This document shows positions 2,604 through 58,718 of a stretch of 64,000 nt of DNA, piece after piece. How positions within the stretch are numbered: the first letter of the stretch is position 1; every line of letters starts with the position of its first letter. The DNA comes from Candidatus Micrarchaeota archaeon. Its GTDB lineage: Archaea; Micrarchaeota; Micrarchaeia; Norongarragalinales; JAPLXB01. The DNA is taken from assembly GCA_026396285.1 (NCBI GenBank), contig JAPLXB010000022.1, forward strand, positions 9,506 to 73,505, given 5' to 3'. A model generated the notes under the pieces. The model ran no database searches. It had not been told where the DNA came from and saw nothing but the letters and a program-made list of their open reading frames with translations. Both the position numbers and the translations under genes were made by a program.

Positions 2604-3122
2604 GAAATCACCGAAAAAACAGTGGATTCGCTTGTTTAAATGATTTCCGCGGCCGGCGGCTGCACGCGCAATGCTTGCGCTAACGGGTTTTGAAAAAATG
2701 GCTGCGCCGGGTTTTTTTCACGCAGCATTGGTCGTTGGTCCCTCGGGGTAGTGTCCACAAGCCAATGGCAAGTATCGTTACTGCATCAAGAAAATTGCCA
2801 TTGGATTGTGAAGAATGGCCTTTAGTGGCGGTTGGCTCAATGCTCGCTTTCGCTCGCATCTTCCACCTCCGCTCTATCAAACCCATCTGCTATGGGCGGC
2901 CTATGCTGTCTCGTTTTGGGGCCGGCTTCGTCCTTAGTTAGACCCCGACGGGATGCAGTATCAGTAGCTACCTCGGTCCTCATTTAAGGAAATCAGACTG
3001 GGACAGTTTCTTCACGACCGCTCCCGCCGAGTATGCCTTCAGGACTTATCCGATGGCGCGTGGCTACGCGGCATGCGTTGACACAACCGCATTACTAGAG
3101 GCGCCGACTCCCCGTTCCTCTC

Positions 3123-3267
3123 TTGAGCCTGGGCACTGTCCGCGAAACTGTGCAGTCCAGGATAGACTGCGGGAATTTTCACGCAACTGTTGACGACAAT
3201 TCACGGACTTTCGTCTCGTGCCGCCATCTGTTGCGCTTACCGAAAAATATGCGGGCCTTGCCCAGTG
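3123..3267 (-). other. Putative intron/insertion (about 145 nt) splitting the 23S sarcin-ricin loop
   Basis: In rRNA sense the gene reads GAGTAC[145 nt]GAGAGGAACGG. Removing the insert restores the universal AGUACGAGAGGAAC. Confidence 0.5.
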
Positions 3268-3449
3268 TACTCAGGGAACCTTACCCTCAGACAGCAAAGC
3301 ACTTCTAGGAGATGCCACCGAACTGTCTCGCGACGTTCTGAACCCAACTAACGTGCGTTTTTAACGGATGAACAACCCGACCCTTGGCGGCTCCTGCACC
3401 ACCAGGATAACGCGAGCCGATAGCGATGTACCAAACCGCGTGGTCGATT

Positions 3450-3644
3450 AGCCCTTTTCAAGGCAATTTTCCTCACAGTCGTGGTACGAGTTGGTTTCGT
3501 GACCATCGTTCGAATCAGTCGATCGCCGACTGAACGTAGAAATTTTTTGGGACTCCTGCGCCCGAATCGGCGCGACTTGAAACGAACAGCCTCGCACCAC
3601 GAGAAAATCACCATACCCTTCCATGAAAACACGGAAGAGGAAAA
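3450..3644 (-). other. Putative intron/insertion (about 195 nt) in 23S domain V
   Basis: In rRNA sense the gene reads CGAGAGTTCAT[195 nt]AATCGACCACGCGGTTTGGTACATCG. The conserved sequence is ...GAGUUCAUAUCGACGG..GUUUGGCACCUCG. The insert has no ORF. Confidence 0.5.
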
Positions 3645-6600
3645 ATGAACTCTCGCACGCGACGAGCCTGTTACCCCCGGGGTAGCTTGTCTGACAGAAC
3701 GGGCCCCCAGTAAAAGGGACACCGTTGTTCGCTAAGCCCGACTTTCGTCTCTGCGGACCATTTTGTTAGGACCACAGTCAATCCGGCATTTGTCTTTGAC
3801 CCTCTACAGCGCATTTCTGACGCGCTTGAGCCGAATATTAGGCGCCTTTGTTTTTTTATCGAAGGCGTACCGCCCCAGCCAAAACGCCCATCAGCAGCTG
3901 TCCATTTCTGTTAGAAACACAGTCAAAGAATAGCAGTGTCACACTTTCGCCTATCGCCGCCCCGGAAGGCGGCGCATAACGGCTCCTGCTTACGCTTTGA
4001 TCCCCCAACCGTATTCCAACTGCAAACTGCGTTTAAGCTCCACGGGGTCTTCGTTTCCCCCTAGAAGTCCTCGGCATGTTCACCGAGTAGTAGGTTCACC
4101 AGGTCCAAAGCTGGGACAGTGGGACGCTCGTTACGCCATTCATGCAAGCCGCCAATTAAGCGGCGAGGTATTACGCTACCTTAAGAGAGTCAGAGTTACT
4201 CCCGCTCTTTAACGGTCCTTCGCCCCCTTGAAAGGAGGTTTAAGATCCCGCCAGTGAGCAGGCGTCGGCACCCGTGCACAACGTTTCCATCTTGCGGGTA
4301 CCTGTGTTTTTGCTAAACAGTCGACGTCCCCTTGTTTACAGCCCTTTTTCGCGCTCGGGCGCTATCAACCAAATCATAAGCTTAAAAGCGGGCGCTTTCG
4401 CGTCCGCGGGTTAGCATTTCATGGGTTGTTCATTTCTTCACCGCGTGAAAAAGAGTCACTGCGACCTACCAATCCCCTTCGATGTGATCCGCGAACCCGA
4501 TTGCGTGGAACGCAATCAAGCCGCGTATAATCTCTGGAGAGAGGTAGGCATCCCTTCTTCCGAAGGTATGGGACTAACTTGCCGAATTCCCTAGCTTTGG
4601 TTCTCCTGCCACGCCTTGGCTTTTTCTGCCAGGGGCACCTTTCAGTAAACGTTTTCTTTTGGTGAAGCTTTTCTTTTCCAAAAGAAAAGGCTCAGTACTG
4701 GTTCTTGGTACGGTCTAATGGGATCCATTCCCTCACTCTTTTCAGGGGCTCGTGGAATCGGCCCAACCCTTTCGGGCTATTCCCTGCTTGGGCGCATGCT
4801 CCTCGTTACGAGACTTCTGCGCTCTGTTCAGGTTAACCACCCTCTCGGGTGGTGGGCTTGTCCGCAAGCGTCAAATGAAGGACTTGCGTTGCCGCGCGTA
4901 CCCACTAGGCACACGAATGTTAACGTGTTTCCCTTTCGGCTTCACGGTTACGTTTAGCCTTAGGACCGGCTTACTCTTGGTCGACTAGCGTTGCCAAGAA
5001 ACCCTTGCCCTTCCGGCGTCCAGGAAACGAGTAACAGGACGACGCTCCGCGTCGTCGTGTTAGTTCTCGCCTGGAATTGATGCTACTAGCACCAGGATCT
5101 TCGTCGCGACCCGGTCCACACGACCTCACGGCCGTGCTTCTACCCGGGCCCCGCGCCCTCCTAATCGGTCACGAGATTTCCTCTCGTGCGCTGGAGTATC
5201 GGTGATGCGCTTAGTCCCGATAGTTTACAGCGCCGCAGTCCTTGACGGGTCCGCTGTTACGCGTTGTTTAAAGGATGGCTGCTTCTGAGCCTACCTCCCC
5301 GCTGTCTGAGAACCATGACGCCTTGTCTTAACACTTAGCGCATGCTTTGGGACCTTAGCTCCAGTAGGGGTCGTTCCCCTCTCGGCGTACGCGCTTATCT
5401 CGTACAGCCCAACTCCCAGCGTCTTAAACGCTGACGGCTTCGGAGTTTGACAGGAAAGTGAGGATTTTACTCCCCGTTCTTCCCAGTCGGTTGCTCTACC
5501 CGTCAGCTGTCTCGGCTGAGGCTGTCCTGAGAGACACTTCGGAGGGAACCTGCTAATGCCGGCCTCGAATGAACTTTCATCCCTAGGCACGAGTCACCCC
5601 AGCGGCTGTCCAACCTTTTTGGTGAAGCTTTTTGCGTACAAAAAGGTTCTTAGACCAGCACGGGTTGCGGGCCTCCGCCAGCCTTACGGCCGGTTTCGCC
5701 CTGCTCGAGTCTAGATCGGTCCGGCTTCAGGTCTCAAACGAGTGACTCAAGGCGCTTTCGCACCCTCCCCCTCGCGCAACAAGTGCGTTGCGGGGACTCG
5801 CTTTCGCTTTGCATTGTGTGCTCGCCACTCGCATGAACTCCCTGGCCCTTGCTTCGAGAAGTATGATGCAACACTGGTTACTCCTTTCGGAGGTCATTCC
5901 TTTTGCGCCGCATCTTCTTGTAACCACCCAGTTTCAGATTCTTTGCACTGCCCTTTCGGGCTGCTTTTCAGTTTTCCATCACTGTACTGGCTGCGCTATC
6001 GGTCTCGGATTATATTTAGCGTTTGAAGTTAATGCTCCGGCTTTCCCACGCCCAATCCGGGGCGCGGTACTCTGGATCCCACCACACCCGGCGGTCGTTC
6101 GCTTACACGGCTTTCACGTTCTATGGCAAAGCTTTCCAGCTTTCTTCAGCTCCGGCTGCCGGCGTTAAAAGGTGGTCCCTGAACCCCACATCTGAACCGC
6201 CTTGCGGCGGGTCATTCGGTTTGCGCTATTCCGCTTTCGGTCGCCCTACTTGCGGAATCCTGGTTAGTTTCTTTTCCTCTCCCTACTGAGATATTTCAAT
6301 TCGGAAGGTCTTCTCTCCTCTCGGAGTTATTCGGGAACCCGCGGTTCAAAGCCTCCGTGCGGCTACCCGCGGCTTTTCGCAGCTTGGCGCGCCCTTCGTC
6401 GCTATCCGAGCCCAACCATCCACTGAGTGGCATAAACTAGTAGCACTACTCCTCGGGAACCAACGACCTATGCTGCTTCATGAAAACGAAAACGCGTGAC
6501 CGTAGTCAGCGTTTCCTCAGCGCTTGGTTCGACGACGCCCCGGGAAGGGGACTTACTCGCGAACTGCCATTCCTTTTCCAACGATTTTTACTCGCCGAAA

Positions 6601-6673: not shown

Positions 6674-6776
6674 TGGACTCGGTGGGATTTTCATCCCCGC
6701 AGAAATGCACGCAGGGTTTTTGAACCCACGACCTCCTGCTTGCAAAGCAGGCGCGCTGCCACTGCGCTACGAGCCC
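6674..6776 (-). tRNA. tRNA-Ala(UGC) with a roughly 31-nt intron in the T-loop (16S-23S spacer tRNA)
   Basis: The reverse complement reads GGGCTCGTAGCGCAGTGGCAGCGCGCCTGCTTTGCAAGCAGGAGGTCGTGGGTTCAA[AAACCCTGCGTGCATTTCTGCGGGGATGA]AAATCCCACCGAGTCCA. The acceptor stem has the G3:U70 Ala identity pair. The anticodon loop CUUUGCAAG gives UGC. The T-stem GUGGG/CCCAC encloses 38 nt instead of 7. CCA is not encoded. Confidence 0.8.
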
Positions 6777-6973
6777 AAGCCGTGCTTGGTTGCGGAAGTG
6801 ACTCCGCAACAGTCGCTATCCCGGCGAACGCGAACCTGCACCGGCGATGGCTTTAGCCATCGCCAAGGTTGTCCGGCGTCCGCCAAGGCGTTTTTCCAGG
6901 CTCCAAGAATTGCATTGACCAAAGGAAATTGACTTTCCTCAGATCTCTCCAAATTAGTTCTTCCAACCAATTG

Positions 6974-8583
<1,610 letters not shown>

Positions 8584-12197: not shown

Positions 12198-14072
12198 ATG
12201 CGTTTCACCGGCTTCGCGGTCGCGTGGCTCTCCGCGATTGTTCTGATTGCTTGCGCGGCCGCCGCCGCAACTACCGTTTCGGCTTGCGGGTCGTCTCTAA
12301 ACGCCGCCGGAGAAACCTATGAGCTCAACCAGAGCATTTCCCTTGCCGGAGGCACGTGCCTCATCATCAACGCGGCAAATATCACGCTTGACTGCCAAGG
12401 CCATTCCATAACCGGCGACAGGGACGCGGCCACGCTGGCAATAGAAGTTTCCCCCTCGGCCGATAACGCGACAGTCAAAGGCTGCGAATTGGAAGACCAC
12501 GGCACCGGGATATACATCGATTCCGGGACAGTGAATCACGTCATAACTAACAACACGATTCACGACGCCCGTGATGCCGGAATCGAAAGCGACAGTTCGT
12601 GCAACAACACCGTCATTTTCAACAACACTATCTACGACGTGTACACTGATGACTTTCTGGTAGGGACAGGAATCTGGATGCGGGGCGAATACCACAACAT
12701 TTCATTCAATTCAGTGAGCAACATCGGCCAGGACGGAATAATCCTCTCTCCCTCCAACCACAGCGTCGTTTCATTTAATTCGGTGAACTGGACCCATTAC
12801 GAGGCCGGAATTTACGTGGATGGCGGCGGCTCTTACGAAAACCCTAACGCCGAGTACATAACCATTTCAGGAAACAACGTGACGTCACCGGGAGTTGACG
12901 ACGTCACGGACGGCGCGGCAGGCATATACGTGGCTGGCAGGCACTGCAACGTCTCATACAACCGGGTTTACAACAGCACGGCAGCCGGCACCGCTTCAAC
13001 CGGCATGGAATTCTACTACGGTTACAACAACACGGTTGCCGGAAATAATGTCTCATTCAACAACATGGGCATAGTAGTCTATGCAGAGGGAACGGTTTTG
13101 CGGAACAACGTAGCGGACGGCAATGCCTTCGAAGCATATGCAATCGGAGTCATAAGCGATGCGGACTTCTCCGCAACCGGCGATTATGACATCGACAGTT
13201 CAAACACAGCCAACGGCGACCCCATTCACTATTATTACGGCGCGTCCGACCTAGTAATCCAAGGCCTTTCCCTTTCCGGCGCCAACACCGCCGGCGGAAA
13301 AGTGACTTGCGTCAAGTGCACTAACATGGTCATCAAAAACAGCGTGTTCGCGAACAATGCTGGCGATGCTTCATCCGAGCTGTTCCTTGCAGGAGTCCTT
13401 TTGGTGAACTCCACCAACGTCGTAGTCATGACAAACACCATGCAGACCAACTCTTATGCGGTTTGGATCTACGGCGGTACAAACATTACGATAAAGGAAA
13501 ACAACTTCTCCACCCAGAACACCGCGGGCATACTCGTCCATTCAAACGCCACAGAAGGCTACGAAACTACAGAACTAAGCCTCGTGGACAACTATGGGTC
13601 GGACAACGCCGAATGGCTCAGCTTCGAGGGAGAACCGATTTCGTGGAGCGTTTCGAAAAACGGCTTCAGGTTATCATACTACAACGTCTCCTCCACCGAA
13701 GCGGTTGAACCCAACATATATCTTGCCAGCGGCGTCATCGCGGTGAACACCACAGCCAACCCGGCGCTGAACACGAGCGCCAACGTCACCCTCACCTTCG
13801 CCGGCAGCTGCCCGCGCATCGACCTGTACTATTACGCAAACTATTCAACGAGCCTCAGCGAAATTGTCGCCAACGGCCAGTTATGCAATTCGACTAGCAC
13901 GCCGGCGTGCAACATCATTTCCTGCTCGGGAAACACGGTCACGTTCTCGGTGTCGCACTTCGATTCCTACGGCGGCCAGGGATATGACATACCCGAATTC
14001 TCGGGCTTGGCGGCGCTGTTCGCAGCCGCCCTCGCGGGCGCGGGCTATGCGCTGGCAAGGAAAAGAAAATAG
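12198..14072 (+). CDS. Secreted right-handed parallel beta-helix repeat protein with C-terminal PEF-CTERM sorting signal
   Basis: 624 aa. It has an N-terminal signal peptide and repeated NNT[IV]xxN / GIxI motifs typical of PbH1 beta-helix repeats, plus many N-x-S/T sequons. The C-terminus ...YDIPEFSGLAALFAAALAGAGYALARKRK is a tripeptide PEF, a hydrophobic helix and a basic tail, which is the PEF-CTERM archaeosortase-type signal. Confidence 0.6.
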   Translation: MRFTGFAVAWLSAIVLIACAAAAATTVSACGSSLNAAGETYELNQSISLAGGTCLIINAANITLDCQGHSITGDRDAATLAIEVSPSADNATVKGCELEDHGTGIYIDSGTVNHVITNNTIHDARDAGIESDSSCNNTVIFNNTIYDVYTDDFLVGTGIWMRGEYHNISFNSVSNIGQDGIILSPSNHSVVSFNSVNWTHYEAGIYVDGGGSYENPNAEYITISGNNVTSPGVDDVTDGAAGIYVAGRHCNVSYNRVYNSTAAGTASTGMEFYYGYNNTVAGNNVSFNNMGIVVYAEGTVLRNNVADGNAFEAYAIGVISDADFSATGDYDIDSSNTANGDPIHYYYGASDLVIQGLSLSGANTAGGKVTCVKCTNMVIKNSVFANNAGDASSELFLAGVLLVNSTNVVVMTNTMQTNSYAVWIYGGTNITIKENNFSTQNTAGILVHSNATEGYETTELSLVDNYGSDNAEWLSFEGEPISWSVSKNGFRLSYYNVSSTEAVEPNIYLASGVIAVNTTANPALNTSANVTLTFAGSCPRIDLYYYANYSTSLSEIVANGQLCNSTSTPACNIISCSGNTVTFSVSHFDSYGGQGYDIPEFSGLAALFAAALAGAGYALARKRK

Positions 14073-19852: not shown

Positions 19853-22800
19853 ATGGGTGGATTGAGGGCTTCAGCGGCCTTACTCGTAGTTTTCGCGCTA
19901 TTCAACATAGCCCTGATGGCGCCCTTCGCCTCGGCGTACGGTTTCGTCCAGCCAAAAACCGTTTCAACCAAAAACTTTGTTACGGTGACGCCCACGCCGG
20001 TGCCAGAGCCAACCACGGTGCCGGATTCAGCGGTTTCAACGGCTTCAAGCCAGCCCGGCCAGGCGGTCCAGACGGCTCCGGCCGGCCAAAAGACGGTTTC
20101 AACCACTTCCATTCCGTCAGTCGCTTCCACGAAACCAAGGCAAATGACTGGCTTAATGGTTGCAAAAAGCGCCATCGTCTCAGGATGCGCCGAAGGCGGG
20201 GACTGCATCGTTTCCTCAGACACTACATTGGGCAGGACAGTGAATTACCGTTCCTTCACGATTCCCTCAGGCGTCGTCGTGACAGTCGACGGCTCGCTCG
20301 TCATCAACGCCAGGGACGTCACCATTGACGGTTCAATGATTGCCGACGGCGCAGGCGGCGGAAACGGAAAGGACGGGGAAATCTTCGGCGGAAACGGCAA
20401 CGCCGGAATAGACGGCACAAGCGGAGGAAGCGTAACAATCAACGCGAACGGGAAGGTTTCAATCGGCGGGCGCGTCACTTCAAACGGAGGAAACGGCGGG
20501 GACGGAGGGGACAACGATTGCCTGTATTCAGTGTGCCGCGCAAGCAAGGGCGGCAACGCCGGAAACGGCGGCACTATCTCAGTCAACGCAGGCGACCTTG
20601 TAGTAACCGGAACAATGCTTGCAAACGGCGGATACGGTGGCAAAGGAGGTTTCGGCGACGGGTGCGACGGCCACGGCGGAAACGGCGGCACAGGAGGCAG
20701 CGGCGGCACGATAAGCCTCAAGTACGCGACTTACTCCGTCCGCTCGGCGCCGCAAGCGAACGCGAACACCAGCGACAAGTTTGCAAACCTCGGCGCAGAA
20801 GCGTTCAACACGATGTCAAGCATTTTGTTAAGCCCGCTCCAAACCTTTGCTGGCGGGGGCGGGAAAGGCGGGGGCCACGACTACACGTTCCCGTGCAGCA
20901 TCGACGGCGGCGGTTCAAACGGCCGCGATGGCGCCAACGGCGCAACAGGCGCAGTCAACACCATCCAGAAAACCCTTGCATCAATCACAATCACTCCGTC
21001 AGCCGCTTCGGTGAAGGCAGGCGATTCAGTCACTTTTAATGCCGCTGGAACCGACGGCGAAGGAAAGCCGTTCACAATCAACCCTTCGTGGTCAACTGCA
21101 GACCAAGACAAGGGAACAATCACATCTTCAGGGACTTCTGCGACGTTCACGGGCAAAAAAACCGGTTCAACCACGCTTACCGCCACCCAGGGTTCAGTGA
21201 GCGCGAGTGCTTCAGTAACAGTTGTCCCGGGCGCGCCAGCGTCAATCACGCTGTCCGCAAGCTCCCCGACGGCAACTGCGGGCCAAGGCGTGACAATCAC
21301 CGCAGTAGTCAAGGACTTTGAAGGAAACACTGTTGCAGATGGTACAAACATTTTGTTTTCCGCAACCGACGGCTCCGCAACCCCGGCGAGTGTTTCAACA
21401 ACTGGCGGCAGCGCGGCCACAACGCTTTATTCAACAGTCCCTGGAACCGCAACGGTGACTGCCTCGGCTAATTCCGTAACTCAGTCGGTTTCAGTGACTT
21501 TCAACGCCGGCCCGGCTGACGCCGGTTCGTCAACGGTTTCAGCGAACGTGGCCACAATCCCGGCAAACGGGGTAAACGAATCCATTATAATAATCACGTT
21601 GAAGGACGCGTTCGGAAACCCGGCTGCCGGCAGAAGCGTCTCGCTTTCGTCAAGCAGGGGAGCCGCCGACGTGATAACCCCACTTGTAGCCACAACAGAC
21701 GCAAACGGCGTCGCGACGTTTTCAGTCAAATCCGGCACGCCCGGCACCTCCACCATCGCGGCCACTGACTCCTCGGACGGCGTCACGGTTTCCCAGACCG
21801 CGGCAGTCGCTTTCGTGGACCTCGTCCCGCCAGTCCTGACTTTCACTGCGCCGACGCCCAACAACCAAGCCATCACCACGAACTACACCACGATAACCAT
21901 TTCGTCTTCCAAGCCGCTTTCCACTGCAATCCTCTCATGGAATGGCGCGAACGAAAACATGGCGGGCAGCGGAACCACTTGGACAGTGCAGAAAACCAGC
22001 CTCGCGAACGCGAACTATTCCTTCCAAGCCATGGGAACAGACGCCGCAGGAAACCAGGGCTCGACTGAAAAAAGATGGGTCGTCATCAACTACGCCCAGC
22101 CCGACACTGTCCCGCCGGTTTCGAATTCACCGCCCGACGCCCAGTATGAAATCGGCAGCACCGCAACAATCCCGTGGGTCCTTTACGACGACCGCGGCCC
22201 CGGAACCTATTCGGTGACGAAAAACGGCTTGGCTTACATTCCCGCGACGCCGTGGACAAACGCCTCAAACCTCGCGGTTCCAGTAGACACTTCAACCACC
22301 GGCGCGTGGAACTACGCCATTTCATTCACTGATTCTTCAGGCAACGCCGGCGCAGGCGACACGGTAACAATCACTGTTTCGGACACAACGCCGCCAGCAT
22401 ACCGCGCCGTCACAGCGAATTCATCCGACCACAACCTGCCTGCGACGTTTAGCGCCTACTGGACAGACAACGCGGCGCTTTCGGGATTCATTTTCTCAAC
22501 CAACAACTCGGGCGCGTGGCTCAACGACTCGTGGACGCCGTTTTCAAACGCATGGAGCAACGCCACGAAAACACTTGCAAACCAGAACAACGCCGCAATA
22601 GGGTGGCGCATCTATGCAAATGATTCGTCCAACAACTGGAACGACACTGGAACCCAGGTAATCGTCACCACGAACACACCGCCCGCAGTCACGGCGCCTT
22701 CGCTTGACAACGCGAACCCCCTCCCATTTGACGTCGTGACGTGCATTGCCGGCGCGTATTCGGACGCGAACAGCGACCCGCTGGCGCAGGCGTACTGGAA

Positions 22801-25800
22801 ATGGTTCAAGAACGGCGCGGACGCAGGCGCAGCCGCGCAGGCACTCAACCTTTCATCAATTGCTGCAGTCCCCGGCGACATTGTAACTTGCGCTGAAATC
22901 GTTTCCGACGGCTTCGACAACTCAACACAAGCCAATTCAACGAACACCGCGACAGTGGCTTCGCCGGCTGACTCGCAGGCGCCGCAGTGGAGCAATAACA
23001 AAACCACTCCCGCCAGCCCCGTTGCTTACTCGCCGGCGCAAACCCTCCAACTCAACGTCACCTGGACTGATGACTCAGTGGTCACGCAGGCACTCCTCGA
23101 ATGGAATGGCGCAGTCAACTATTCAATGGGCAAGGCTGGCAGCGAATACTACCACTCGCTTCCGCCGCTTGCCGCAGGCACTTACTCGTGGCGCTCGCTT
23201 GCAAGGGACGCGGTCGGAAACTGGAACGCGACTCCGGCATGGCCATATGTTGTTAACCAGGTGACTTCATCGTGCTCGCTTTCATTCAACCCCCCCTCGC
23301 CTGCTGTTTACGGCACCGCAGTCAATGCGTCGTGTTCGTGCACCAACCCGGAGGCCACGGCGGCGCTTTACAGGAATGGCGCGGACGTCACCGCTGCCGA
23401 AAACAAGCAATTTACTGTCCTTGGCGCGGGAATCCACTCATACGAATGCAATTCCACTGCCTCCCAGAACTACACGAGCGCCTCGGCAACAGCCTCGTTC
23501 ACGGTCACCCAGATGGCCACGTCAATGCGCTTGTATTTCAACGGCTCTGAAGCGAATGCAGTCGTTGTAAAGGGCGTGAATTCAACAGTCAACGTCACAG
23601 CGGCCCTGAATGCAACGCCTCCGTTCGCGCTTTTCCTGAACGGCTCGCAAATCAATTCCGGCGCCTCGCCACTGGCCAACGTTTCCGACTGGGGCGTTGG
23701 CTACTGGAACTTCACGACCGCGTTCGCCGGCAACGCTAACTATCTGCCCGCGTCAAAAACCCTGTTCCTCACGGTAATCAACCCCCCGGACGCTGTTCCG
23801 CCAGCGGTGGCTTTGAACGCCCCCTCGGACAATTCTTGGAGCGCTGTGAAAAGCATCCAATTCAATTACACACCGGCAGACAACGTTGCGCTCTCGGCCT
23901 GCACGCTGTGGAACAACGAATCGGTTTGGGGCGCCAAGGCAGGCAATTCAACGCCGCTCGCCAACGGCTCAATAAATTCAATCCAGTTCGCGTTCGCTTC
24001 GGACGGAGTCTACAAGTGGAGCGTGCAATGCTCGGACAATTCAAGCAACTCAGCGTTCGCGCCAGCCAACTGGACGATAAAAATCGATTCCACTCCGCCC
24101 GCGTCGAATTCGCCGCCGGACGCGCAGTACGGGATTGGCAGCGTTGCCAGCATTTCATGGACACTCACCGACAACGTGGGGCCCGGGCTTTACCGCGTGC
24201 TGAAAAACGGCACCGCAGTCGGCGGCTGGAGCGCGTGGGCGAACAACACCGCCGTGACGATCCCGGTGGAGACGTCCGCGCTAGGGGCATGGAATTACAC
24301 GATATACTATAACGATTCCTTGGGCAGCTTCGGCGCGCCCGACACAGTCATCGTGACCATTGGCGATTCCCAGCCACCCATTTACTCCGCAGTTGGCTCA
24401 AATGGAACTGACGGCGCGGGCGAAGCAGTGACCGTCTGGGCATACTGGACTGACAACGTGGCGCTTAGTGCCTATGTTTTCTCCACGAACAACTCAGGCG
24501 CATGGGCCAACCAGACCGGTTGGATGTTCTATGCCAATGACTCCAGCGGCAACTTGAACGCAACGCCGATTCAGGCAATAGCCACGGTTGACAAAGTCCC
24601 GCCCACAATCACTTTTGTTTCACCCACTCCTGCGAACGGTGCAGTGCTCGACGCCGATGCCGTGATGATGAACGCGACGCTGTCAAAGAACGGCGGCGCG
24701 CTCCTGGAATGGACTTGCAGCAACGGCACTGCGGCTAACTTGTCCATGCTCGGCGGAGGCACGAACTACTACAAGAACATGACCGGCCTCAAGAACGGGA
24801 CGCACTATTACCGCGTGTGGGCCAACAACTCCAACGGCTACTGGAACACCAGCGAAACAAGGAACCTGACTGTCCCGCCGTTCGTCAGGGTCGGGAGCTT
24901 CCCGGAAGGCAGGGCCATGAAATTGAAGGTTTTCAATAACTACATGTATTTCGGAACTGGTTACAACGCCGCGGTTTACCGCACTTCAGACGGCGTGAAC
25001 TGGACGCTTGCGGCCGACTTGTCGTCCGTGCGCTTCGTTGAGGCGATGGAGGTTTTCAAAAACCAGCTTTACATAACGACCGGCGGGCCGAATGCCGGCG
25101 ACGGGAAAATTTACACCACTTCCGACGGCGTGCTGTGGTTCATGGTGCTTAATTCTACCCAGGTGCACATCACGTCCCTCGCGGTATGGAACTACACCGA
25201 GTTCTGCGGCGGCGAAACGCTTTACGCCGGCACCTACCTTAACGCCGGCTCCGGGCACGCCTATTTCACCTGCGACGGCTGGACGTGGTATGACGACGGG
25301 GACCAGTTTTCGGGCGTGTGGTCAATCCACCAGTTCGGCACAAGGATGTATTTCGGACTCGGGGACGGGTGGATCACCAACAGAAGTTTTGAAAACACCA
25401 GCGCATGGAGTGCCTTCAACTTGGGCGACACGAACGTGCTCTCGATGGAAGTCTTCAACAACCAGATTTACGCGGGAACCGCTAACAAGCACGTCTGGAA
25501 CTCCTCAACCGGCGCAGCGTATAATATGTCCCTCGACGTGTCGCCTGAAACGCAGGTGAATGCGTTGAGTAATTCCTCGATTGACTCCAGGATTTACGCC
25601 GCCTCGCTTGGCCCGAGTTCCACGACGATATGGTCTTCATCCAACGGCGCGGACTGGCAGGCAGTCTATACGCCGCCGGGAATGAAAATGACTGCTGGCT
25701 TCGCGGACTTCAACGGCACCGGCGAAAACAGGCTTTATGCCGCGATAAGCGGGCCTAACTATAGTATTGTCAACGGCGGCACAGCATACGTGTACAAGTC

Positions 25801-25813
25801 AACGTATCCATGA
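19853..25813 (+). CDS. Giant secreted surface/adhesin-like protein (1986 aa) with Gly-rich beta-helix-like region, Big_2/Ig-like domains and BNR/Asp-box-like beta-propeller repeats
   Basis: Signal peptide MGGLRASAALLVVFALFNIALMAPFASA. A GGNGxDG repeat region. ITITPSAASVKAGDSVTFNA (Big_2-like) and several Ig-like blocks. C-terminal repeats with SxDGxxW (TSDGVNWT, TSDGVLWF, SSNGADWQ). Dozens of N-glycosylation sequons. Confidence 0.6.
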   Translation: MGGLRASAALLVVFALFNIALMAPFASAYGFVQPKTVSTKNFVTVTPTPVPEPTTVPDSAVSTASSQPGQAVQTAPAGQKTVSTTSIPSVASTKPRQMTGLMVAKSAIVSGCAEGGDCIVSSDTTLGRTVNYRSFTIPSGVVVTVDGSLVINARDVTIDGSMIADGAGGGNGKDGEIFGGNGNAGIDGTSGGSVTINANGKVSIGGRVTSNGGNGGDGGDNDCLYSVCRASKGGNAGNGGTISVNAGDLVVTGTMLANGGYGGKGGFGDGCDGHGGNGGTGGSGGTISLKYATYSVRSAPQANANTSDKFANLGAEAFNTMSSILLSPLQTFAGGGGKGGGHDYTFPCSIDGGGSNGRDGANGATGAVNTIQKTLASITITPSAASVKAGDSVTFNAAGTDGEGKPFTINPSWSTADQDKGTITSSGTSATFTGKKTGSTTLTATQGSVSASASVTVVPGAPASITLSASSPTATAGQGVTITAVVKDFEGNTVADGTNILFSATDGSATPASVSTTGGSAATTLYSTVPGTATVTASANSVTQSVSVTFNAGPADAGSSTVSANVATIPANGVNESIIIITLKDAFGNPAAGRSVSLSSSRGAADVITPLVATTDANGVATFSVKSGTPGTSTIAATDSSDGVTVSQTAAVAFVDLVPPVLTFTAPTPNNQAITTNYTTITISSSKPLSTAILSWNGANENMAGSGTTWTVQKTSLANANYSFQAMGTDAAGNQGSTEKRWVVINYAQPDTVPPVSNSPPDAQYEIGSTATIPWVLYDDRGPGTYSVTKNGLAYIPATPWTNASNLAVPVDTSTTGAWNYAISFTDSSGNAGAGDTVTITVSDTTPPAYRAVTANSSDHNLPATFSAYWTDNAALSGFIFSTNNSGAWLNDSWTPFSNAWSNATKTLANQNNAAIGWRIYANDSSNNWNDTGTQVIVTTNTPPAVTAPSLDNANPLPFDVVTCIAGAYSDANSDPLAQAYWKWFKNGADAGAAAQALNLSSIAAVPGDIVTCAEIVSDGFDNSTQANSTNTATVASPADSQAPQWSNNKTTPASPVAYSPAQTLQLNVTWTDDSVVTQALLEWNGAVNYSMGKAGSEYYHSLPPLAAGTYSWRSLARDAVGNWNATPAWPYVVNQVTSSCSLSFNPPSPAVYGTAVNASCSCTNPEATAALYRNGADVTAAENKQFTVLGAGIHSYECNSTASQNYTSASATASFTVTQMATSMRLYFNGSEANAVVVKGVNSTVNVTAALNATPPFALFLNGSQINSGASPLANVSDWGVGYWNFTTAFAGNANYLPASKTLFLTVINPPDAVPPAVALNAPSDNSWSAVKSIQFNYTPADNVALSACTLWNNESVWGAKAGNSTPLANGSINSIQFAFASDGVYKWSVQCSDNSSNSAFAPANWTIKIDSTPPASNSPPDAQYGIGSVASISWTLTDNVGPGLYRVLKNGTAVGGWSAWANNTAVTIPVETSALGAWNYTIYYNDSLGSFGAPDTVIVTIGDSQPPIYSAVGSNGTDGAGEAVTVWAYWTDNVALSAYVFSTNNSGAWANQTGWMFYANDSSGNLNATPIQAIATVDKVPPTITFVSPTPANGAVLDADAVMMNATLSKNGGALLEWTCSNGTAANLSMLGGGTNYYKNMTGLKNGTHYYRVWANNSNGYWNTSETRNLTVPPFVRVGSFPEGRAMKLKVFNNYMYFGTGYNAAVYRTSDGVNWTLAADLSSVRFVEAMEVFKNQLYITTGGPNAGDGKIYTTSDGVLWFMVLNSTQVHITSLAVWNYTEFCGGETLYAGTYLNAGSGHAYFTCDGWTWYDDGDQFSGVWSIHQFGTRMYFGLGDGWITNRSFENTSAWSAFNLGDTNVLSMEVFNNQIYAGTANKHVWNSSTGAAYNMSLDVSPETQVNALSNSSIDSRIYAASLGPSSTTIWSSSNGADWQAVYTPPGMKMTAGFADFNGTGENRLYAAISGPNYSIVNGGTAYVYKSTYP

Positions 25814-28883: not shown

Positions 28884-30926
28884 TCAGATGAACAGCGGCG
28901 CGAGGACCAGCGTAATCGTGCTCAGCAACTTGATGAGGACGTGCAGGGACGGGCCTGCGGTGTCCTTGAATGGGTCGCCGACCGTGTCCCCCACTACTGC
29001 AGCCTTGTGGGCTTCCGAGCCTTTTCCGCCGTACATGCCGGATTCAATGTATTTCTTTGCATTGTCCCATGCGCCGCCGCCGTTGTTCATCAGCGTCGCC
29101 AACAATACGCCTGCGATTGTGCCAACCATGAGGAAAGCGGCCATTGCCTCTGCCTTGAGCAACACGCCGACCAGTACAGGGAACCCTACCGCAAGCAACC
29201 CCGGCAGCACCATGTTCTTCAGCGCCCCGGTGGTCGTGATGTCCACGCACTTCGCGTAATCAGGCTTGACGCGGCCTTCCATTATTCCCGGTATCTTGAA
29301 CTGGCGCCTGACTTCGGTTATCACGTACTGCGCGGTCTTGCTCACCGCCCTGATTGCGAACGCGGAGAAGACGAAAATGAGCATTGCGCCGAGCATTGCG
29401 CCGATGAAGACGTCGACTTTCGCGATGTCCACTGCGCCGAACGGCTTTCCAGTCAATTTCGCCACGTCGCCCATGTATGCCGAAAAGAGCAGGAATGCGG
29501 CGAGTGCGGCTGAACCGATTGCATATCCTTTTGTCAAGGCTTTTGTCGTGTTTCCAACCGCATCCAAGCGGTCGGTTTTCTTGCGCACAGCCGCTGGCGC
29601 GCCCGACATTTCAATTATTCCGCCGGCGTTGTCCGCAATCGGACCGAACGTGTCCATTGCAAGGATGTATGCCGCGGTGGCGAGCATTCCCATTGTCGCA
29701 ATCGCCGTCCCGTACAATCCGCCGTAGGCGACTCCGGACCATTCGCCGAACTTGTATGCGAGAATCAAGGCGATTGAAATCGCGATTATTGGCAGGCCCG
29801 TGCATTCAAGACCCACTGAAAAGCCGGACAGAATGTTGGTGGCGGGCCCGGTCTTCGATGCTTCGGCTATTTCCTTGACCGGCCTGTACCTGCTCTCGGT
29901 ATAGTATTGCGTTATGTACACGAAGGCGATTGAGAGAATTATTCCAGTGAGGCCCGCGTAAAAGAACCACACGTTGCCCAGCATCCACATCGTCGCCACG
30001 TAAAAGAATATCGCCGCGAGAATCGATGTCACAAAGTACCCGCGGTTCAAGGCGTTCATGGGATCCTCGTCCTCTTTGGCGCGGACGGCCATTATCCCGA
30101 TTATTGACGCAATCAAGCCGAATGCGCGGGCCACGAGCGGGAAAAGGATTCCGCTAATGCCAAAAACAGGGTATAACGCGACTCCGAGTATCATTGCGCC
30201 GATGTTCTCGGCAGCAGTTGATTCGAACAAGTCGGCGCCTCTTCCTGCGCAGTCGCCAACGTTGTCGCCCACCAGGTCCGCAATCACCGCCGGGTTCCTC
30301 GGATCATCCTCAGGGATGCCTGCCTCGACTTTCCCGACCAGGTCTGCGCCGACATCGGCTGCCTTGGTGTAAATCCCTCCGCCCAATTGGGCGAAGAGGG
30401 CGACGAAACTTGCTCCGAAGCCGAAGCCCACCATCATGAAAGGAGTCTCGGTCGGGTTCGCGCCGAGGGCATAGAATATTATGGACACTCCGAGGAGCGA
30501 CATCGCTACTATCGTCAGGCCTGACACGGCCCCGCCCCTCAACGCGATTTTAAGCGCGTTCGCCGCGCTTTTCGTCGAGGCAGCCGCGGTCCTGATGTTG
30601 GTCCTGACTGAAATGAACATGCCGATTATGCCTGCGAGCGCCGAGCAGAATGCGCCGAAAATGAATGAAACCGAGGTGTACCACGCCCTTTGCGGGTCGC
30701 CCAGCGCCGAGTACCCGATGAAAATCACTGCCGCAAGCACGATTGCCAGCGCCGAAATCGTCACGTACTGCCGCTTGAGGAACGCTTCCGCGCCCTCTTT
30801 TATCGCGTCGGAAATAGTGCGCATCTTCGGCGTGCCAGTCTCCTGCTTGAGGACGAACCAAGCGAGGTATCCGGCAAAGCCGAGGCTGATTATGCTTATT
30901 GCGAAAACGAGTTCGAGTGCAAACAT
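28884..30926 (-). CDS. hppA: Membrane-bound proton/sodium-translocating pyrophosphatase
   Basis: 680 aa, about 16 TM helices. GGIYTKAADVGADLVGKVE, DNVGDCAGRGADLFES and AAVVGDTVGDPFKDTAGPSL are H+-PPase signature motifs. Confidence 0.9.
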   Translation of the reverse strand: MFALELVFAISIISLGFAGYLAWFVLKQETGTPKMRTISDAIKEGAEAFLKRQYVTISALAIVLAAVIFIGYSALGDPQRAWYTSVSFIFGAFCSALAGIIGMFISVRTNIRTAAASTKSAANALKIALRGGAVSGLTIVAMSLLGVSIIFYALGANPTETPFMMVGFGFGASFVALFAQLGGGIYTKAADVGADLVGKVEAGIPEDDPRNPAVIADLVGDNVGDCAGRGADLFESTAAENIGAMILGVALYPVFGISGILFPLVARAFGLIASIIGIMAVRAKEDEDPMNALNRGYFVTSILAAIFFYVATMWMLGNVWFFYAGLTGIILSIAFVYITQYYTESRYRPVKEIAEASKTGPATNILSGFSVGLECTGLPIIAISIALILAYKFGEWSGVAYGGLYGTAIATMGMLATAAYILAMDTFGPIADNAGGIIEMSGAPAAVRKKTDRLDAVGNTTKALTKGYAIGSAALAAFLLFSAYMGDVAKLTGKPFGAVDIAKVDVFIGAMLGAMLIFVFSAFAIRAVSKTAQYVITEVRRQFKIPGIMEGRVKPDYAKCVDITTTGALKNMVLPGLLAVGFPVLVGVLLKAEAMAAFLMVGTIAGVLLATLMNNGGGAWDNAKKYIESGMYGGKGSEAHKAAVVGDTVGDPFKDTAGPSLHVLIKLLSTITLVLAPLFI

Positions 30927-31471: not shown

Positions 31472-31594
31472 GGGCCCGTAGCTCAGCTTGGCTAGACCAA
31501 CTGCTTGGGCGATGCTTCGCATCGCCGGGGTAGGCGGGGCTACAGCAGCTGGCTTTTAACCAGAAGGTCGTGGGTTCAAATCCCGCCGGGCCCG
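31472..31594 (+). tRNA. tRNA-Lys(UUU) with a roughly 48-nt non-canonical intron in the D-arm
   Basis: Exon 1 is GGGCCCGUAGCUCAGCUUGGCUAGA (31472-31496). The intron is 31497-31544. Exon 2 is GCAGCUGGCUUUUAACCAGAAGGUCGUGGGUUCAAAUCCCGCCGGGCCCG. Spliced this gives a 75-nt cloverleaf with a 7-bp acceptor stem GGGCCCG/CGGGCCC, discriminator G, a D-stem GCUC/GAGC restored only after intron removal, and anticodon loop CUUUUAA. Confidence 0.65.
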
Positions 31595-35752: not shown

Positions 35753-36904
35753 TCACGGCTGCGTCCATTCTATTTCGTAGTACTCGTACTTGCTGCCCGG
35801 AAGCTCCACTCTCTTCACCCGGTAGTGAGTGATGGAAGTTTCGCGGTCGCAGATGGAGAGTATCAGTTCAAGGCCGACTTCCTTCGCGCGGCGCAGCGCC
35901 TGTGCCAGTTCCTGCCCCCCGATTTCCTCCTCTTCGCTTAGGGCCAGCATCACGAACTTCGGCTTGTCTTCCCTCGGGTTTTCTATCGCCCCGTGCTTCC
36001 GGTGGTACAACAGGAAGTCTAGTTCGGCGGCAGTCTCCTTTTTTTCGCCGGGAATCGCGAGGATGAACGTTTTTTTCACGCCGTGCGCCACGCGGATGGC
36101 GCGTGCCCATTCGCTGATTAGCATCTTGCTGTCGCGGGGGAACACGTGGATGACGTGCTTGGAGTGCATCCACTCCTCGTTCTCGAGCGTCGGTGACGCG
36201 CCCGGGAAGTAGAGGCGGAAGTGGGTGCCGAACTTGAAACCGGTTTTGAGCACGAAGCCGCGGAGGCGCCAGTCCTCGTAAACGTCGTACAGCGCGTTGA
36301 AGTCCTGCCGCCTTTGCGTCGCTTCCTTCACGAGCCGGGCTTCCTTGATGTTCAACACGTATCCGCCGTGGCGCATGAGGAAAAGCGTCTCGTACGCGTC
36401 GAGTTTGTTGAATTTCCCGTGCTTCCGCGCCTTGTACGTCCCGTACTGGCCGAACCAGTCGCGCTCATAAAGCGCCAGGCCTTTTTCCTCGTCGTCAATG
36501 ACGCTCATCAAGTCGTCGTACAAAAACAGGCCTCTGGCTTTCACGCGCGGGCAGTCAAAGTGCTTGGAAGGGTATTTCACCACCGGGCTGCGGCCGTAGT
36601 TGCCTTCGGCCTCGTCCATGGGCCTTGCCACGAGCCCGCGGTCGCGCCAGTCGCGGTAGCAGAAATAGCGCGCCATGAACTTTTTTCCCTGGAGTTTTGA
36701 CGCTAGGCGGTTGAAGGAAACCTGCTTGCCGTTGTGCGTGCAGGAGGCGTTCCTCACGTCCATCAAGTACAATGCTTCCACCGGCATTAGCTCCAGGACG
36801 TTTTTCCCGGTTTTTTTCCCGAAAAAGCCGCGCTCAAGCGCCTGCTCGGAAGTTATTTCCTTTGCCAGCACGCGTTCTCCGTCAAATTCAATAGTGACTG
36901 CCAT
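35753..36904 (-). CDS. endA: tRNA-splicing endonuclease EndA, long single-chain multi-unit form (about 383 aa)
   Basis: The true start MAVTIEFDG is at 36904. The 647-aa ORF-track version has a low-complexity spurious N-extension. Unit 1 is degenerate (YFCYRDWRDRGLVA, no catalytic triad). Unit 2 is catalytic: ALYDVYEDWRLRGFVLKTGFKFGTHFRLY...HSKHVIHVF...AHGVKK, carrying the Tyr/His/Lys triad. A further roughly 90-aa C-terminal segment resembles the last strand-helix-strand of an EndA C-domain (FVMLAL...AQALRRAKEVGLELILSI). Confidence 0.75.
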   Translation of the reverse strand: MAVTIEFDGERVLAKEITSEQALERGFFGKKTGKNVLELMPVEALYLMDVRNASCTHNGKQVSFNRLASKLQGKKFMARYFCYRDWRDRGLVARPMDEAEGNYGRSPVVKYPSKHFDCPRVKARGLFLYDDLMSVIDDEEKGLALYERDWFGQYGTYKARKHGKFNKLDAYETLFLMRHGGYVLNIKEARLVKEATQRRQDFNALYDVYEDWRLRGFVLKTGFKFGTHFRLYFPGASPTLENEEWMHSKHVIHVFPRDSKMLISEWARAIRVAHGVKKTFILAIPGEKKETAAELDFLLYHRKHGAIENPREDKPKFVMLALSEEEEIGGQELAQALRRAKEVGLELILSICDRETSITHYRVKRVELPGSKYEYYEIEWTQP

Positions 36905-37085
36905 TGGGCGTCTCCTCCGCGGGCACCAAAACCCCTTGATTGTCTGCTGCCCGGCGATTGAGTCGGCGAGCCTCTGCGGCTCTTTTAATATTCGCGCTGC
37001 CTTGATTAAAAAAGCGACTGCTTTGCAGCGGAGCCGGCGGGCCTGCCCGTCCTCCGGTCTGCCGCGTGCGGCGGGGGTAGCGGGA

Positions 37086-38363
37086 ATGGGTTTGCTTGAC
37101 GGCCTGGCGGGTTTCTGGAAAAAGCCCGGACCCAAGCCGGCTGCCGGGCGCAGGGAAATGCGCCTCGGCGAACTCGAGTCCTTCCTGAAAACGGAAAGGG
37201 CGGGAAAGCTCGCGCCTTTTGCGGAAAAATCGCGGGACGCGTGCGGAAAAATACTGGACGAACTCGCCGACGCCGCGCGGGCCGCGGAATCCCTCAGGGA
37301 CGCGGAGCCGACCGGCAAATGGAGCCGCATCGGCGAACAAATGAGGGAAAACTTCATCACACGCATAGTCCCGACCCTTGGAATCGCGCGCCACGGCGAA
37401 GGCTTTGAAGCCGCCGCCGAGTTCCACTCCAAGGCGTTCGCGGCAATCTCGGCGTGCACGAAAATATTGTCGGACAACCGGTACCTCCTGCACTTCTTTC
37501 CCAAATCCATGGGCGGTTTCGCGAAGAGGATGAACGCGGCGTCGGCGCTCGTTGAGGAACTCGGCAAAATCGTGCAAGGGGGCCGGCAGGCGGCCGCGGG
37601 GTTTGACGCGGCGGTTGGCGCGCTGAGGGAACGCGAGAAAACGCTCTCGGAGAAGGCTGTTGCCGAGAAGGAGATGGGTGAGTTGGAGGCGTTCAAAACC
37701 GGTTTGAAAAAGAGGATTGCGGAAGAGACTGCGGCCGCGTTGCCCGGGGGAAGGGGGCTTGGCGGCGCGGTTGCCGGAGGAGGCGCTTACGGGGCTGTTG
37801 AAAAAATCGCCGGCATTGAAAAGCGCGTTGGGGCGCTGAAGGCGGAGTTGGCGGTGATGCTGAACCCCCTGGATCGGCTGTTTAGGAAGTTGGAAAAAAT
37901 TTCCCTTGAGAAGCGCGTGGCTGAAAAAGCCGCTTTTTACGCGGCCGGCCCCGCCGACGCAGTGGTTGAAGGCGGAGAGGAAGGGTTGGAGGAATTGAAG
38001 CGCCTTGCAGAAGAAGTCGGCAAGGAACTCGCCGCCGGCCGCTTGGAGACGGACGGGGAGAAGAGGAAGAAAGCAGTGGCTGCTCTGGAACGGATTGACT
38101 TTGGAAAAGTTTCCGCGGCAGTGAACGAACTGGGTTCGCTTGAGAAGGAAAAGGCCGCGGCCGCAGCAGTGCTTGAAAGGGAAAAGGCCGCAGAGCGCGA
38201 GAGGCGGGACTTGGAGGAGGAGCTTGCGGCGGTGGAAATGAAGAAGGTGGCGTTGGAGGAAAAAATACGCGGCGCGGCGAAAAAACTCGCCGAATCCGTG
38301 GCGGGCATTGAAAAAAGCGCTTCCGCGGCCGCTGGCGTTGAAATAAAAATAGCCGCTGAATAA
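37086..38363 (+). CDS. Ala/Glu/Lys-rich coiled-coil protein (cytoplasmic), first gene of the filament supercluster
   Basis: 425 aa from the ATG at 37086. The longer ORF-track version overlaps endA on the other strand. Heptad-like EELAAxxAALE repeats run throughout. No TM. It ends 25 nt before the first class III signal-peptide gene. Confidence 0.4.
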   Translation: MGLLDGLAGFWKKPGPKPAAGRREMRLGELESFLKTERAGKLAPFAEKSRDACGKILDELADAARAAESLRDAEPTGKWSRIGEQMRENFITRIVPTLGIARHGEGFEAAAEFHSKAFAAISACTKILSDNRYLLHFFPKSMGGFAKRMNAASALVEELGKIVQGGRQAAAGFDAAVGALREREKTLSEKAVAEKEMGELEAFKTGLKKRIAEETAAALPGGRGLGGAVAGGGAYGAVEKIAGIEKRVGALKAELAVMLNPLDRLFRKLEKISLEKRVAEKAAFYAAGPADAVVEGGEEGLEELKRLAEEVGKELAAGRLETDGEKRKKAVAALERIDFGKVSAAVNELGSLEKEKAAAAAVLEREKAAERERRDLEEELAAVEMKKVALEEKIRGAAKKLAESVAGIEKSASAAAGVEIKIAAE

Positions 38364-44845: not shown

Positions 44846-45559
44846 TTGATTGAAATGGCTGCTGACGAAAACATTGAGACAGTCATTGACCGCTTGGTCG
44901 ATTTCGTGAAATTAAAAGGCAGGGTCAGCGCGGTCGAGGCCGGGCGGGCGCTTGGCATGAGTTCCGGCCAAGTCGAGGGCATTGCCCGGCTGCTTGAGGA
45001 CAACGGGCTCGTACAAGTGCATTACACCCTTATTGGCACGGAACTCGCCGCGGTTGGAAGGGATTTGAAGAAAAAAGAGGGGGAAAAAAGCCGTGCAAAC
45101 GAGCCGGGCGCCGTGGAGGCGTACAAGGACTTCGAATCCTTCGTCAAGGAAAGCGAGGACATTTTCGAGTTCCTCAAGGAAGAGGTCTTGAAAAAAATGA
45201 CTGCCGCCGAGTCCCTGCTGGACCGGCTGGAAAAAGAGAAACTGGACGAAAACGACAAGACCGCGGTCAGGAAGGAACTCCGCCGGGTGACAAGCACCCT
45301 CAACAACTTCGAACCCACTCTCCAAAAAATCGTGCACGGGGAAAAGGAACTTAGGAAGCGCATAAGGGAAATCAGCAAGAGGACGGCCGCTGCCGAGAGA
45401 AGTAAACCCGGGATTTGGGACGGCATCAGGGACTTTGTTGCAAAATTTAAGCGCCGGAAGAAGGGGAAAATTCCCGCTCCAAGCGCTTCTCCGAAGTCGG
45501 AGAAGCGCAAAAAGCTTTTGGAACGACTCAGCCTTTCCCGCAAAAGGGTGCTGAAATGA
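44846..45559 (+). CDS. Cytoplasmic wHTH-like plus coiled-coil protein, translationally coupled to the filament ATPase
   Basis: 237 aa. The N-terminal roughly 70 aa (VIDRLVDFVKLKGRVSAVEAGRALGMSSGQVEGIARLLEDNGLVQV) looks like a winged helix. A charged coiled coil follows. Its stop overlaps the ATPase start (ATGA). Confidence 0.45.
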   Translation: MIEMAADENIETVIDRLVDFVKLKGRVSAVEAGRALGMSSGQVEGIARLLEDNGLVQVHYTLIGTELAAVGRDLKKKEGEKSRANEPGAVEAYKDFESFVKESEDIFEFLKEEVLKKMTAAESLLDRLEKEKLDENDKTAVRKELRRVTSTLNNFEPTLQKIVHGEKELRKRIREISKRTAAAERSKPGIWDGIRDFVAKFKRRKKGKIPAPSASPKSEKRKKLLERLSLSRKRVLK

Positions 45560-47058: not shown

Positions 47059-47061
47059 AGC

Positions 47062-58661: not shown

Positions 58662-58718
58662 AAGCCGGCTTGAAAGAAATTGCGCTGCAAAAACTTCGCA
58701 AAAAAAAGGTCTTCAACA

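Follow-up and report, generated by a model that had tools for sequence, protein, structure and literature searches.

A probable bulge-helix-bulge intron without an open reading frame at the tip of 23S rRNA helix 89 in a Micrarchaeota archaeon

We analyzed a 64,000-nucleotide (nt) stretch of DNA from Candidatus Micrarchaeota archaeon (GenBank assembly GCA_026396285.1, contig JAPLXB010000022.1, positions 9,506 to 73,505), hereafter the window, in which the 23S ribosomal RNA (rRNA) gene carries an insert at the tip of helix 89 (H89). The host DNA has a G+C content of about 57%. The rRNA operon is encoded on the minus strand, to which all operon coordinates given below refer, and comprises a 16S rRNA gene (6972-8582), a tRNA-Ala(UGC) gene between 16S and 23S that was confirmed as a tRNA by a second check (6704-6776), and the 23S rRNA gene itself (2803-6451), which matches Rfam model RF02540 with a cmscan score of 2232.8 bits. 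The 23S gene is 3649 nt long compared with the 2987 positions of the model, and at H89 cmscan places 198 nt, flanked by AGAGUUCA and UCGACC, against only 2 model positions. The sense strand reads GCGAGAGUUCAU, then 196 nt, then AUCGACCACGCGGUUUGG. E. coli numbering was checked on MG1655 rrlH, where GAGUUCAUAUCGAC occupies 2470-2483, which puts the insert in the apical loop of H89, at the bond between U2477 and A2478. A first-pass annotation, made from the sequence alone, had placed an insertion of about 195 nt lacking an open reading frame (ORF) at 3450-3644, next to the peptidyl transferase center (PTC), and had suggested alignment to large-subunit (LSU) references as a check. Such an alignment, combined with the consensus-restoring junction described below, shows that the insert is real and refines it to 3449-3644 (196 nt), so that the earlier location holds while its 3' end was one base short; "next to the PTC" is also a fair description because H89 flanks the PTC. 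With a minimum free energy (MFE) of -84.8 kcal/mol, compared with -56.5 +/- 4.1 kcal/mol for dinucleotide shuffles (z = -6.85), the insert is far more structured than expected by chance. The longest ORFs across it measure 55-58 aa in one tally and 55-124 aa in another, and none of the three ORFs that overlap it has a Pfam match at E ≤ 10.

Canonical archaeal pre-tRNA geometry, the bulge-helix-bulge (BHB), consists of an outer helix h, a 4-nt exon strand of the central helix H, a 3-nt bulge cut after its second nucleotide, the intron, a 4-nt intron strand of H, another 3-nt bulge cut after its second nucleotide, and the second strand of h. We searched for this motif with a strict scan (H paired 4/4, 3-nt bulges) restricted to insert boundaries, which supersedes an earlier permissive scan of the whole operon that gave 604 matches, mostly chance. 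The strict scan predicts splice sites at 3645/3644 and 3449/3448 (slash, cleaved bond) and the product GCGAGAGUUCAU^AUCGACCACGCG (caret, exon junction). The exon strand of H is GUUC (G2472-C2475; 3647-3650) and pairs 4/4, with two G.U pairs, with the intron strand GGGC (intron positions -6 to -3; 3451-3454). The 5' bulge is formed by A2476, U2477 and the first intron U (AU/U; 3644-3646), and the 3' bulge by the intron nucleotides U and A together with A2478 (UA/A; 3448-3450). Native H89 supplies the outer helix, with its 5' strand (3651-3668) paired to its 3' strand (3431-3447) both in the cmscan structure line and in the computed folds; next to H and the 3' bulge lie the pairs A2471:U2479 and G2470:C2480, followed by a 7-bp stem that every fold retains. 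When folded with the H89 flanks, the BHB conformer lies within 2.3 kcal/mol of the MFE, this difference being the cost of forcing canonical 3-nt bulges, and the unconstrained MFE structure pairs AGUUC with GGGCU and UUUUC with GAAAA. The folding check that the first-pass annotation had also suggested thus finds a motif at the boundaries whose cleavage sites restore the consensus H89 loop: the predicted excision product, GAGAGUUCAU^AUCGACC, is the archaeal and E. coli consensus as well as the sequence of 63 insert-free Micrarchaeota 23S genes. The geometry is validated in this operon because the same rule, cleavage after the second bulge nucleotide, restores the consensus at eight other inserts.

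Loci from relatives were collected by matching a 24-mer of the PTC flank to one-genome-per-species GTDB contigs (42 loci) and JGI metagenomes (74 more). Among the 105 Micrarchaeota 23S loci that could be scored, 63 have no insert and read GAGAGUUCAU/AUCGAC uninterrupted, several with flanks identical to those of the window, and 42 carry an insert at exactly the U2477/A2478 bond. These 42 inserts are 52-288 nt long and fall into 19 clusters (<75% identity). On either side of the insert, the nucleotides of the H89 loop, including the GUUC exon strand (42/42), do not vary among the 42 insert-bearing loci and are the same as in the insert-free loci. The tetranucleotide located 2 nt upstream of the 3' junction is complementary to GUUC at 4/4 positions in 15 of the 19 clusters and at 3/4 positions in the other 4, while at offsets 0, 1 and 3-12 from that junction full complementarity is seen in only 0-2 of the 19. 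The H-strand variants observed (GAAC, GGAC, GAAU, GGGC and GAGC) are all compatible with the fixed GUUC. Moreover, short members are textbook hBHBh' motifs, where h' is the inner helix, as in L022 (52 nt, h' of 14 bp) and L002 (62 nt, h' of 9 bp); in L033 an h' of 11 bp is formed with 1 nt of slack. All-or-none presence, unrelated sequences at a single bond and invariant flanks form the pattern of an intron rather than that of an expansion segment.

The closest relatives of the window intron are 96% (L064) and 90% (L046 and L070) identical to it; they come from independent assemblies and are collinear with window positions 2712-4379 (about 1.7 kb). Precise presence or absence is seen in the pair L100 and L082, which are 98.4-99.0% identical over 3 kb: the 161-nt H89 insert is exactly missing from L100, which keeps another insert. 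The insert-free member of this pair must be DNA because the other insert is retained, and a search for transcript-like contigs that lack the insert but otherwise match an insert-bearing genomic contig exactly gave none, the best pair being this genomic one. In a neighbor-joining tree of the downstream exon, each insert cluster is confined to one host clade, and insert-free loci are interleaved. A hidden Markov model of the family, used with nhmmer against 677 kb of Micrarchaeota rRNA loci plus the window, matched at the H89 bond only with no copies elsewhere, which rules out a dispersed family of mobile elements. Use of the DUF373 neighbor as a query returned a single Logan contig, which ended short of the rRNA operon.

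The first-pass annotation had regarded the insert as too short for a LAGLIDADG enzyme, as the lack of any credible ORF in its 196 nt bears out, and had also offered a degenerate intron as a possibility. The homing endonuclease gene (HEG) remnant implied by descent from a HEG-bearing intron was not found in the insert by Pfam search (E ≤ 10), and all 42 complete same-bond inserts from the 105 loci measure at most 288 nt, too short to encode such an enzyme; a homing-endonuclease (LAGLIDADG) intron or its remnant was therefore rejected, and the word "degenerate" is not supported. An Rfam search of the insert with permissive filters returned nothing at E ≤ 10, and group I models give no gathering-score match in the window. 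The window intron ends in A, and the 42 same-bond inserts have A, U or C in that position but never G; the missing Rfam match and the absence of a terminal G together exclude a group I intron. By-eye inspection for a C/D-box small RNA in the intron saw no RUGAUGA/CUGA pairing in K-turn register.

Eight further inserts in the operon fit the strict BHB rule, and each predicted excision restores the universal sequence. Six of these are in the 23S gene: a 40-nt insert (5608-5647), a 38-nt insert (5026-5063), a 54-nt insert at C1617/A1618 (4641-4694), a 121-nt insert with the junction GUCGCAGUG^ACAAGGGG (4336-4456), a 144-nt insert at C2658/G2659 inside the sarcin-ricin loop (3123-3266; junction GAGUAC^GAGAGGAAC, h' of 7 bp), and a 95-nt insert at U2754/C2755 (2938-3032). 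The 16S gene has two, of 30 nt in the 530 loop (8070-8099; junction GCCGCC^GCGGUAAUAC), where it splits the universal 515F primer site, and of 48 nt in H34 (7429-7476; junction GCCGUG^AGGUGUC, h' of 12 bp); these two mini-introns have an identical H helix, GCCG/CGGU. The operon is thus predicted from its sequence to hold at least nine BHB introns, seven in 23S and two in 16S. The seven 23S introns total 688 nt, and 2961 nt remain after their removal compared with the 2987-position model. Inserts kept inside the sarcin-ricin or 530 loop are incompatible with ribosome function, and the organism must therefore remove them. Two additional inserts have no strict BHB, namely a 77-nt insert in H63 of 23S that looks like a plain helix extension (4467-4543) and a 43-nt insert in a 16S hairpin loop at model position ~560 (7933-7975). 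As a separate observation, the 40-nt and 54-nt 23S introns contain a GCUUCACC motif with an A-rich repeat on either side, a single U-rich strand being complementary to both repeats; a variant of this motif, GCCGUUCAC, is present in the 48-nt H34 intron.

An intact gene for an epsilon2-type (three-unit) RNA-splicing endonuclease of 383 aa lies at 35753-36904 on the minus strand, with Pfam domains tRNA_int_endo and tRNA_int_endo_N. The mechanically called ORF, 35753-37696, is over-extended, and the likely start is the ATG at 36904, which is preceded by GGAGG. ORF residues 270-647 align to residues 8-387 of the chain in PDB 4FZ2/9W2K, the ARMAN-2 EndA of Micrarchaeum (E = 3.6e-130), and the alignment to 4FZ2 conserves the catalytic triad (Y236, H251 and K282), the ASL lysine K161, R275 and W384. 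The roles of these residues, including the broad specificity conferred by K161, are described in PMC3488258, and epsilon2 enzymes cleave both strict and relaxed BHB and bulge-helix-loop (BHL) substrates in vitro (PMC3239211, PMC3488258, PMC12397907). Judging from sequence, this endonuclease, encoded 32 kb from the intron in the same window, is expected to be the enzyme that cuts the H89 intron. In addition, the window contains a tRNA-Lys(UUU)-like gene (31472-31594, plus strand) whose D-arm is interrupted after position 23 by about 48 nt. This gene is overlooked by ARAGORN, and Rfam scores its 3' part only (29.1 bits); no strict BHB was matched in it, and the 5' end of its intron can pair with the start of exon 2 (7/8).

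Taken together, these data make it very probable that the insert is an ORF-less archaeal BHB intron at U2477/A2478, at the tip of H89 in a 23S rRNA of the Micrarchaeota (DPANN). The archaeal-type rRNA mini-intron that the first-pass annotation had suggested is thus supported by the BHB motif, the 63 insert-free genes, the position-specific complementarity and the epsilon2 endonuclease gene. In the mechanism that we propose, the native H89 stem would serve as the outer helix in the pre-rRNA, the exon GUUC would pair with the intron GGGC, and the two 3-nt bulges, AU/U and UA/A, would present the splice bonds. The epsilon2 endonuclease would then cut at 3645/3644 and 3449/3448 and leave 2',3'-cyclic phosphate and 5'-OH ends, after which an RtcB-type ligase would join the exons so that the universal H89 loop, GAGUUCAUAUCGAC, is re-formed, and would probably circularize the 196-nt intron. 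At the DNA level, the intron may be inherited vertically within host clades and gained or lost precisely. Without a HEG, it might spread by reverse splicing or by gene conversion, in which the donor would be an intron-bearing or a cDNA copy, or it might descend vertically and be lost precisely.

Several observations weigh against this interpretation. The inner helix h' of the window intron has only 3-4 A-U pairs (UUU with AAA, or UUUC with GAAA with 1 nt of slack) and does not outperform shuffled controls; because h' is weak, the motif is a relaxed one (hBH/BHL-like). Relaxed BHB forms are admitted for epsilon2 and (alpha-beta)2 enzymes (PMC5829648), and the acceptance of relaxed BHL substrates by epsilon2 enzymes matches the relaxed h' of the window intron. 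In the MFE structure of the intron alone, a covarying GNRA-loop hairpin ties up the intron strand of H. Two-sided covariation of H is not demonstrable because the exon side is invariant, and one clade (L011, L029, L032 and L038) has a mismatch, G.A or G.G, at the fourth pair of H. No gene for the RtcB ligase was seen among the window ORFs scanned, which do not cover all ORFs, although little follows from its absence, given that the window covers no more than 64 kb of the genome. Finally, excision, ligation and circularization are all steps that we infer from sequence.

A different reading of the same insert is retention of the 196 nt in mature 23S rRNA, where they would form a lineage-specific extension of the H89 tip. 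Its stable, covarying structure would suit such a retained segment, as would the plain H63 helix extension in the same gene (4467-4543) and the atypical character of DPANN ribosomes, in which PTC-flank nucleotides C2503 and A2505 deviate. We nonetheless consider retention improbable. The H89 loop nucleotides are invariant in the 42 insert-bearing loci and identical in insert-free ones, near-identical hosts differ by its precise presence or absence, and length and sequence (52-288 nt, 19 clusters) are free except for the four exon-pairing nucleotides at a fixed offset, a complementarity that is predicted by a splicing signal and not by a structural extension. Moreover, inserts with the same motif break the sarcin-ricin and 530 loops, where retention is incompatible with function. 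Equally doubtful is cleavage without ligation, in which mature 23S would be broken at H89 and base pairing would keep the pieces together, as in bacterial rRNAs with intervening sequences. The BHB evidence speaks to cleavage alone, each of the seven 23S introns would need religation, and RtcB was not seen among the scanned ORFs; set against this, the archaeal BHB introns of rRNA and tRNA that have been characterized are all ligated by RtcB (PMC5829648), the window is too small a part of the genome for absence of a ligase to count, and seven nicks in 23S, one of them inside the sarcin-ricin loop, would lack precedent.

Descent from a self-splicing group I (or group II) intron that has degenerated is more improbable still. 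Group I introns are documented in Micrarchaeota LSU genes at 1923, 1931 and 2593 (PMC6125680), and the 5' exon at H89 ends in U, as such an origin would allow, but the insert has neither an Rfam match nor a terminal G, its 196 nt are below typical group I size, and inserts at the same bond are as short as 52 nt. Least credible of all is an assembly chimera or a pseudogene in a non-functional operon, to which the rather low rRNA score for its length and the unusual substitutions at conserved PTC-flank positions might point. Inserts 90-96% identical occur in the independent assemblies L046, L070 and L064 with collinearity over 1.7 kb, however, the PTC-flank variant is common to 117 independent loci, and the full-length rRNA models match end to end. 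An ORF-less BHB intron thus accounts best for the insert.

Internal structure was compared in the family of about 200-nt inserts made up of the window cluster and the L003, L012 and L011 clusters, which are about 63% identical to one another. In all members folded, a long, irregular rod lies between a 5' hairpin and a GNRA-loop hairpin at the 3' terminus. In the window intron, the 5' hairpin is CCUCUUCCGUG-UUUU-CAUGGAAGGG (3616-3640) in the MFE structure, with an equivalent in all members folded, and the 3'-terminal hairpin is GCCUU-GAAA-AGGGC (3451-3464), which is seen in the MFE structure of the intron alone and is supported by covariation. Covariation was assessed in a 15-sequence family alignment with few independent lineages, and we report those helices that are supported relative to slid controls (partners moved by 1-3 columns), in which 32-56% of positions are paired. 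A distal helix between segment X (CGCGCCGAUU, 3565-3574) and segment Z (AGUCGGCG, 3524-3531) is 96% paired with 3 compensatory pairs, and the figures for the 3'-terminal hairpin are 89% and 4. On the columns of this hairpin's 3' strand, helix H reaches 92% pairing; because that strand is also the intron strand of H, the two structures exclude each other. The 5' strand of this hairpin is often GUUC-like and so mimics the exon. Segment X can pair distally with Z or locally with 3558-3563, both partners are available in every lineage, and in the window subfamily X and both of its partners differ from those of the other clusters. RNAalifold applied to sequence-only alignments recovered only part of the fold. 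It is possible, if rather unlikely, that the family is a conserved structured RNA that controls its own excision, perhaps as a switch that would delay H89 splicing until a step of 50S assembly, or that it gives a stable circular RNA with a role of its own.

BHB introns in archaeal rRNA, including that of Micrarchaeota, are already known (PMC4496867, PMC6125680, PMC5498576), and they co-occur with group I introns in Micrarchaeota LSU genes (PMC6125680). We found no specific description of DPANN rRNA BHB introns or of an intron at U2477/A2478 in the literature searched, so that the "classical homing site" of the first-pass annotation is not supported for this bond. The H89 tip is a new site, and the inserts there a new recurrent ORF-less Micrarchaeota family, within a known kind of intron. 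The closest parallels are the crenarchaeal rRNA BHB introns in the 16S and 23S genes of Thermoproteales and Desulfurococcales (for example in Pyrobaculum, Desulfurococcus mobilis and Aeropyrum), which likewise occupy highly conserved rRNA sites. Their conserved junction "core" folds into a BHB that is cut by the tRNA splicing endonuclease, as proposed here, several can be present in one gene, and sequence varies within a locus while the core is kept (PMC4496867). In contrast, the host in the present case is a mesophile-like DPANN archaeon (about 57% G+C), h' is relaxed, no LAGLIDADG ORF is present at the H89 bond (maximum 288 nt), and the enzyme is of the epsilon2 rather than the (alpha-beta)2 type.

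Non-canonical tRNA introns of ARMAN-2 and Mancarchaeum share with the H89 intron the phylum, the epsilon2 EndA family and the acceptance of relaxed BHB/BHL motifs (PMC3488258, PMC12397907). The substrate here is rRNA, however, and the H89 intron, at 196 nt, is far longer than those tRNA introns and folds internally in a conserved way. The work on ARMAN-2 EndA concerns tRNA, the term "rRNA" having 0 occurrences in PMC3488258, and our findings suggest that this enzyme type, studied so far on tRNA, also has rRNA substrates. Archaeal LSU group I introns occur in the same host genes and lineage, at conserved sites in domains IV and V, and together with BHB introns (PMC6125680), but they are ribozymes located at L1923, L1931, L2500 and L2593, often with LAGLIDADG ORFs, whereas the H89 insert is at another site and has no group I signature and no terminal G. 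Inserts in the rRNA genes of CPR (Patescibacteria) are similar in that they are numerous at conserved positions in ultrasmall, genome-reduced hosts and are removed from transcripts (PMC11270868); they differ in being bacterial, largely group I/II-like or HEG-bearing, and free of BHB processing by a splicing endonuclease.

If these predictions are correct, one DPANN rRNA operon can bear at least nine BHB introns, some of them in the most conserved loops of the ribosome (sarcin-ricin, 530, H34 and H89), with a broad-specificity epsilon2 endonuclease encoded within the same 64-kb window. Such inserts disrupt "universal" primer sites (515F/530) and inflate or fragment rRNA gene calls in metagenome-assembled genomes (MAGs). 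The H89 bond also offers a natural series of strict-to-relaxed BHB motifs on which substrate rules could be tested. We regard the whole-operon picture and the possible splice-controlling switch as the parts most worth following.

Other features of the PTC region were seen alongside these results. Many relatives (L003, L011, L012, L016, L019, L032-L034, L042 and others) have a further insert between GGGGGUA and ACAGGC, at approximately A2450/A2451 in the PTC itself, which the window does not have. Just 3' of H89, at 3407-3430, the window reads ACAUCGCUAUCGGCUC compared with the consensus ACCUCGAUGUCGGCUC and so departs from it at nucleotides regarded as invariant, with C2503 and A2505 (along with U2496 and A2499) and, upstream, G2448. 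The exact 24-mer of this flank is present in 116 other loci, and all 42 matches in genomes are MAGs of Micrarchaeota/Micrarchaeia/Norongarragalinales, so the variant looks like a lineage signature. It might have consequences for the entrance of the exit tunnel and for m2A2503-type modification.

Outside the operon, the window encodes two type IV pilus/archaellum-like assembly clusters on the plus strand (45556-48990 and 55411-59735), each with a T2SSE ATPase and two T2SSF membrane proteins, and a KaiC-like ATPase between them (49064-49861, plus strand). Large predicted secreted or surface proteins are encoded at 12198-14072, 19853-25813 and 40308-43877, all on the plus strand; one is a 624-aa beta-helix protein that is rich in N-x-S/T and ends in a PEF-CTERM-like sorting signal, and two are giant ORFs of 1986 and 1189 aa. 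A membrane H+-pyrophosphatase (28884-30926, minus strand; Pfam H_PPase, E = 1.8e-259) is encoded near genes for aIF2-gamma, class I LysRS, Kae1/TsaD, an Rpo7-like protein and adenylate kinase.

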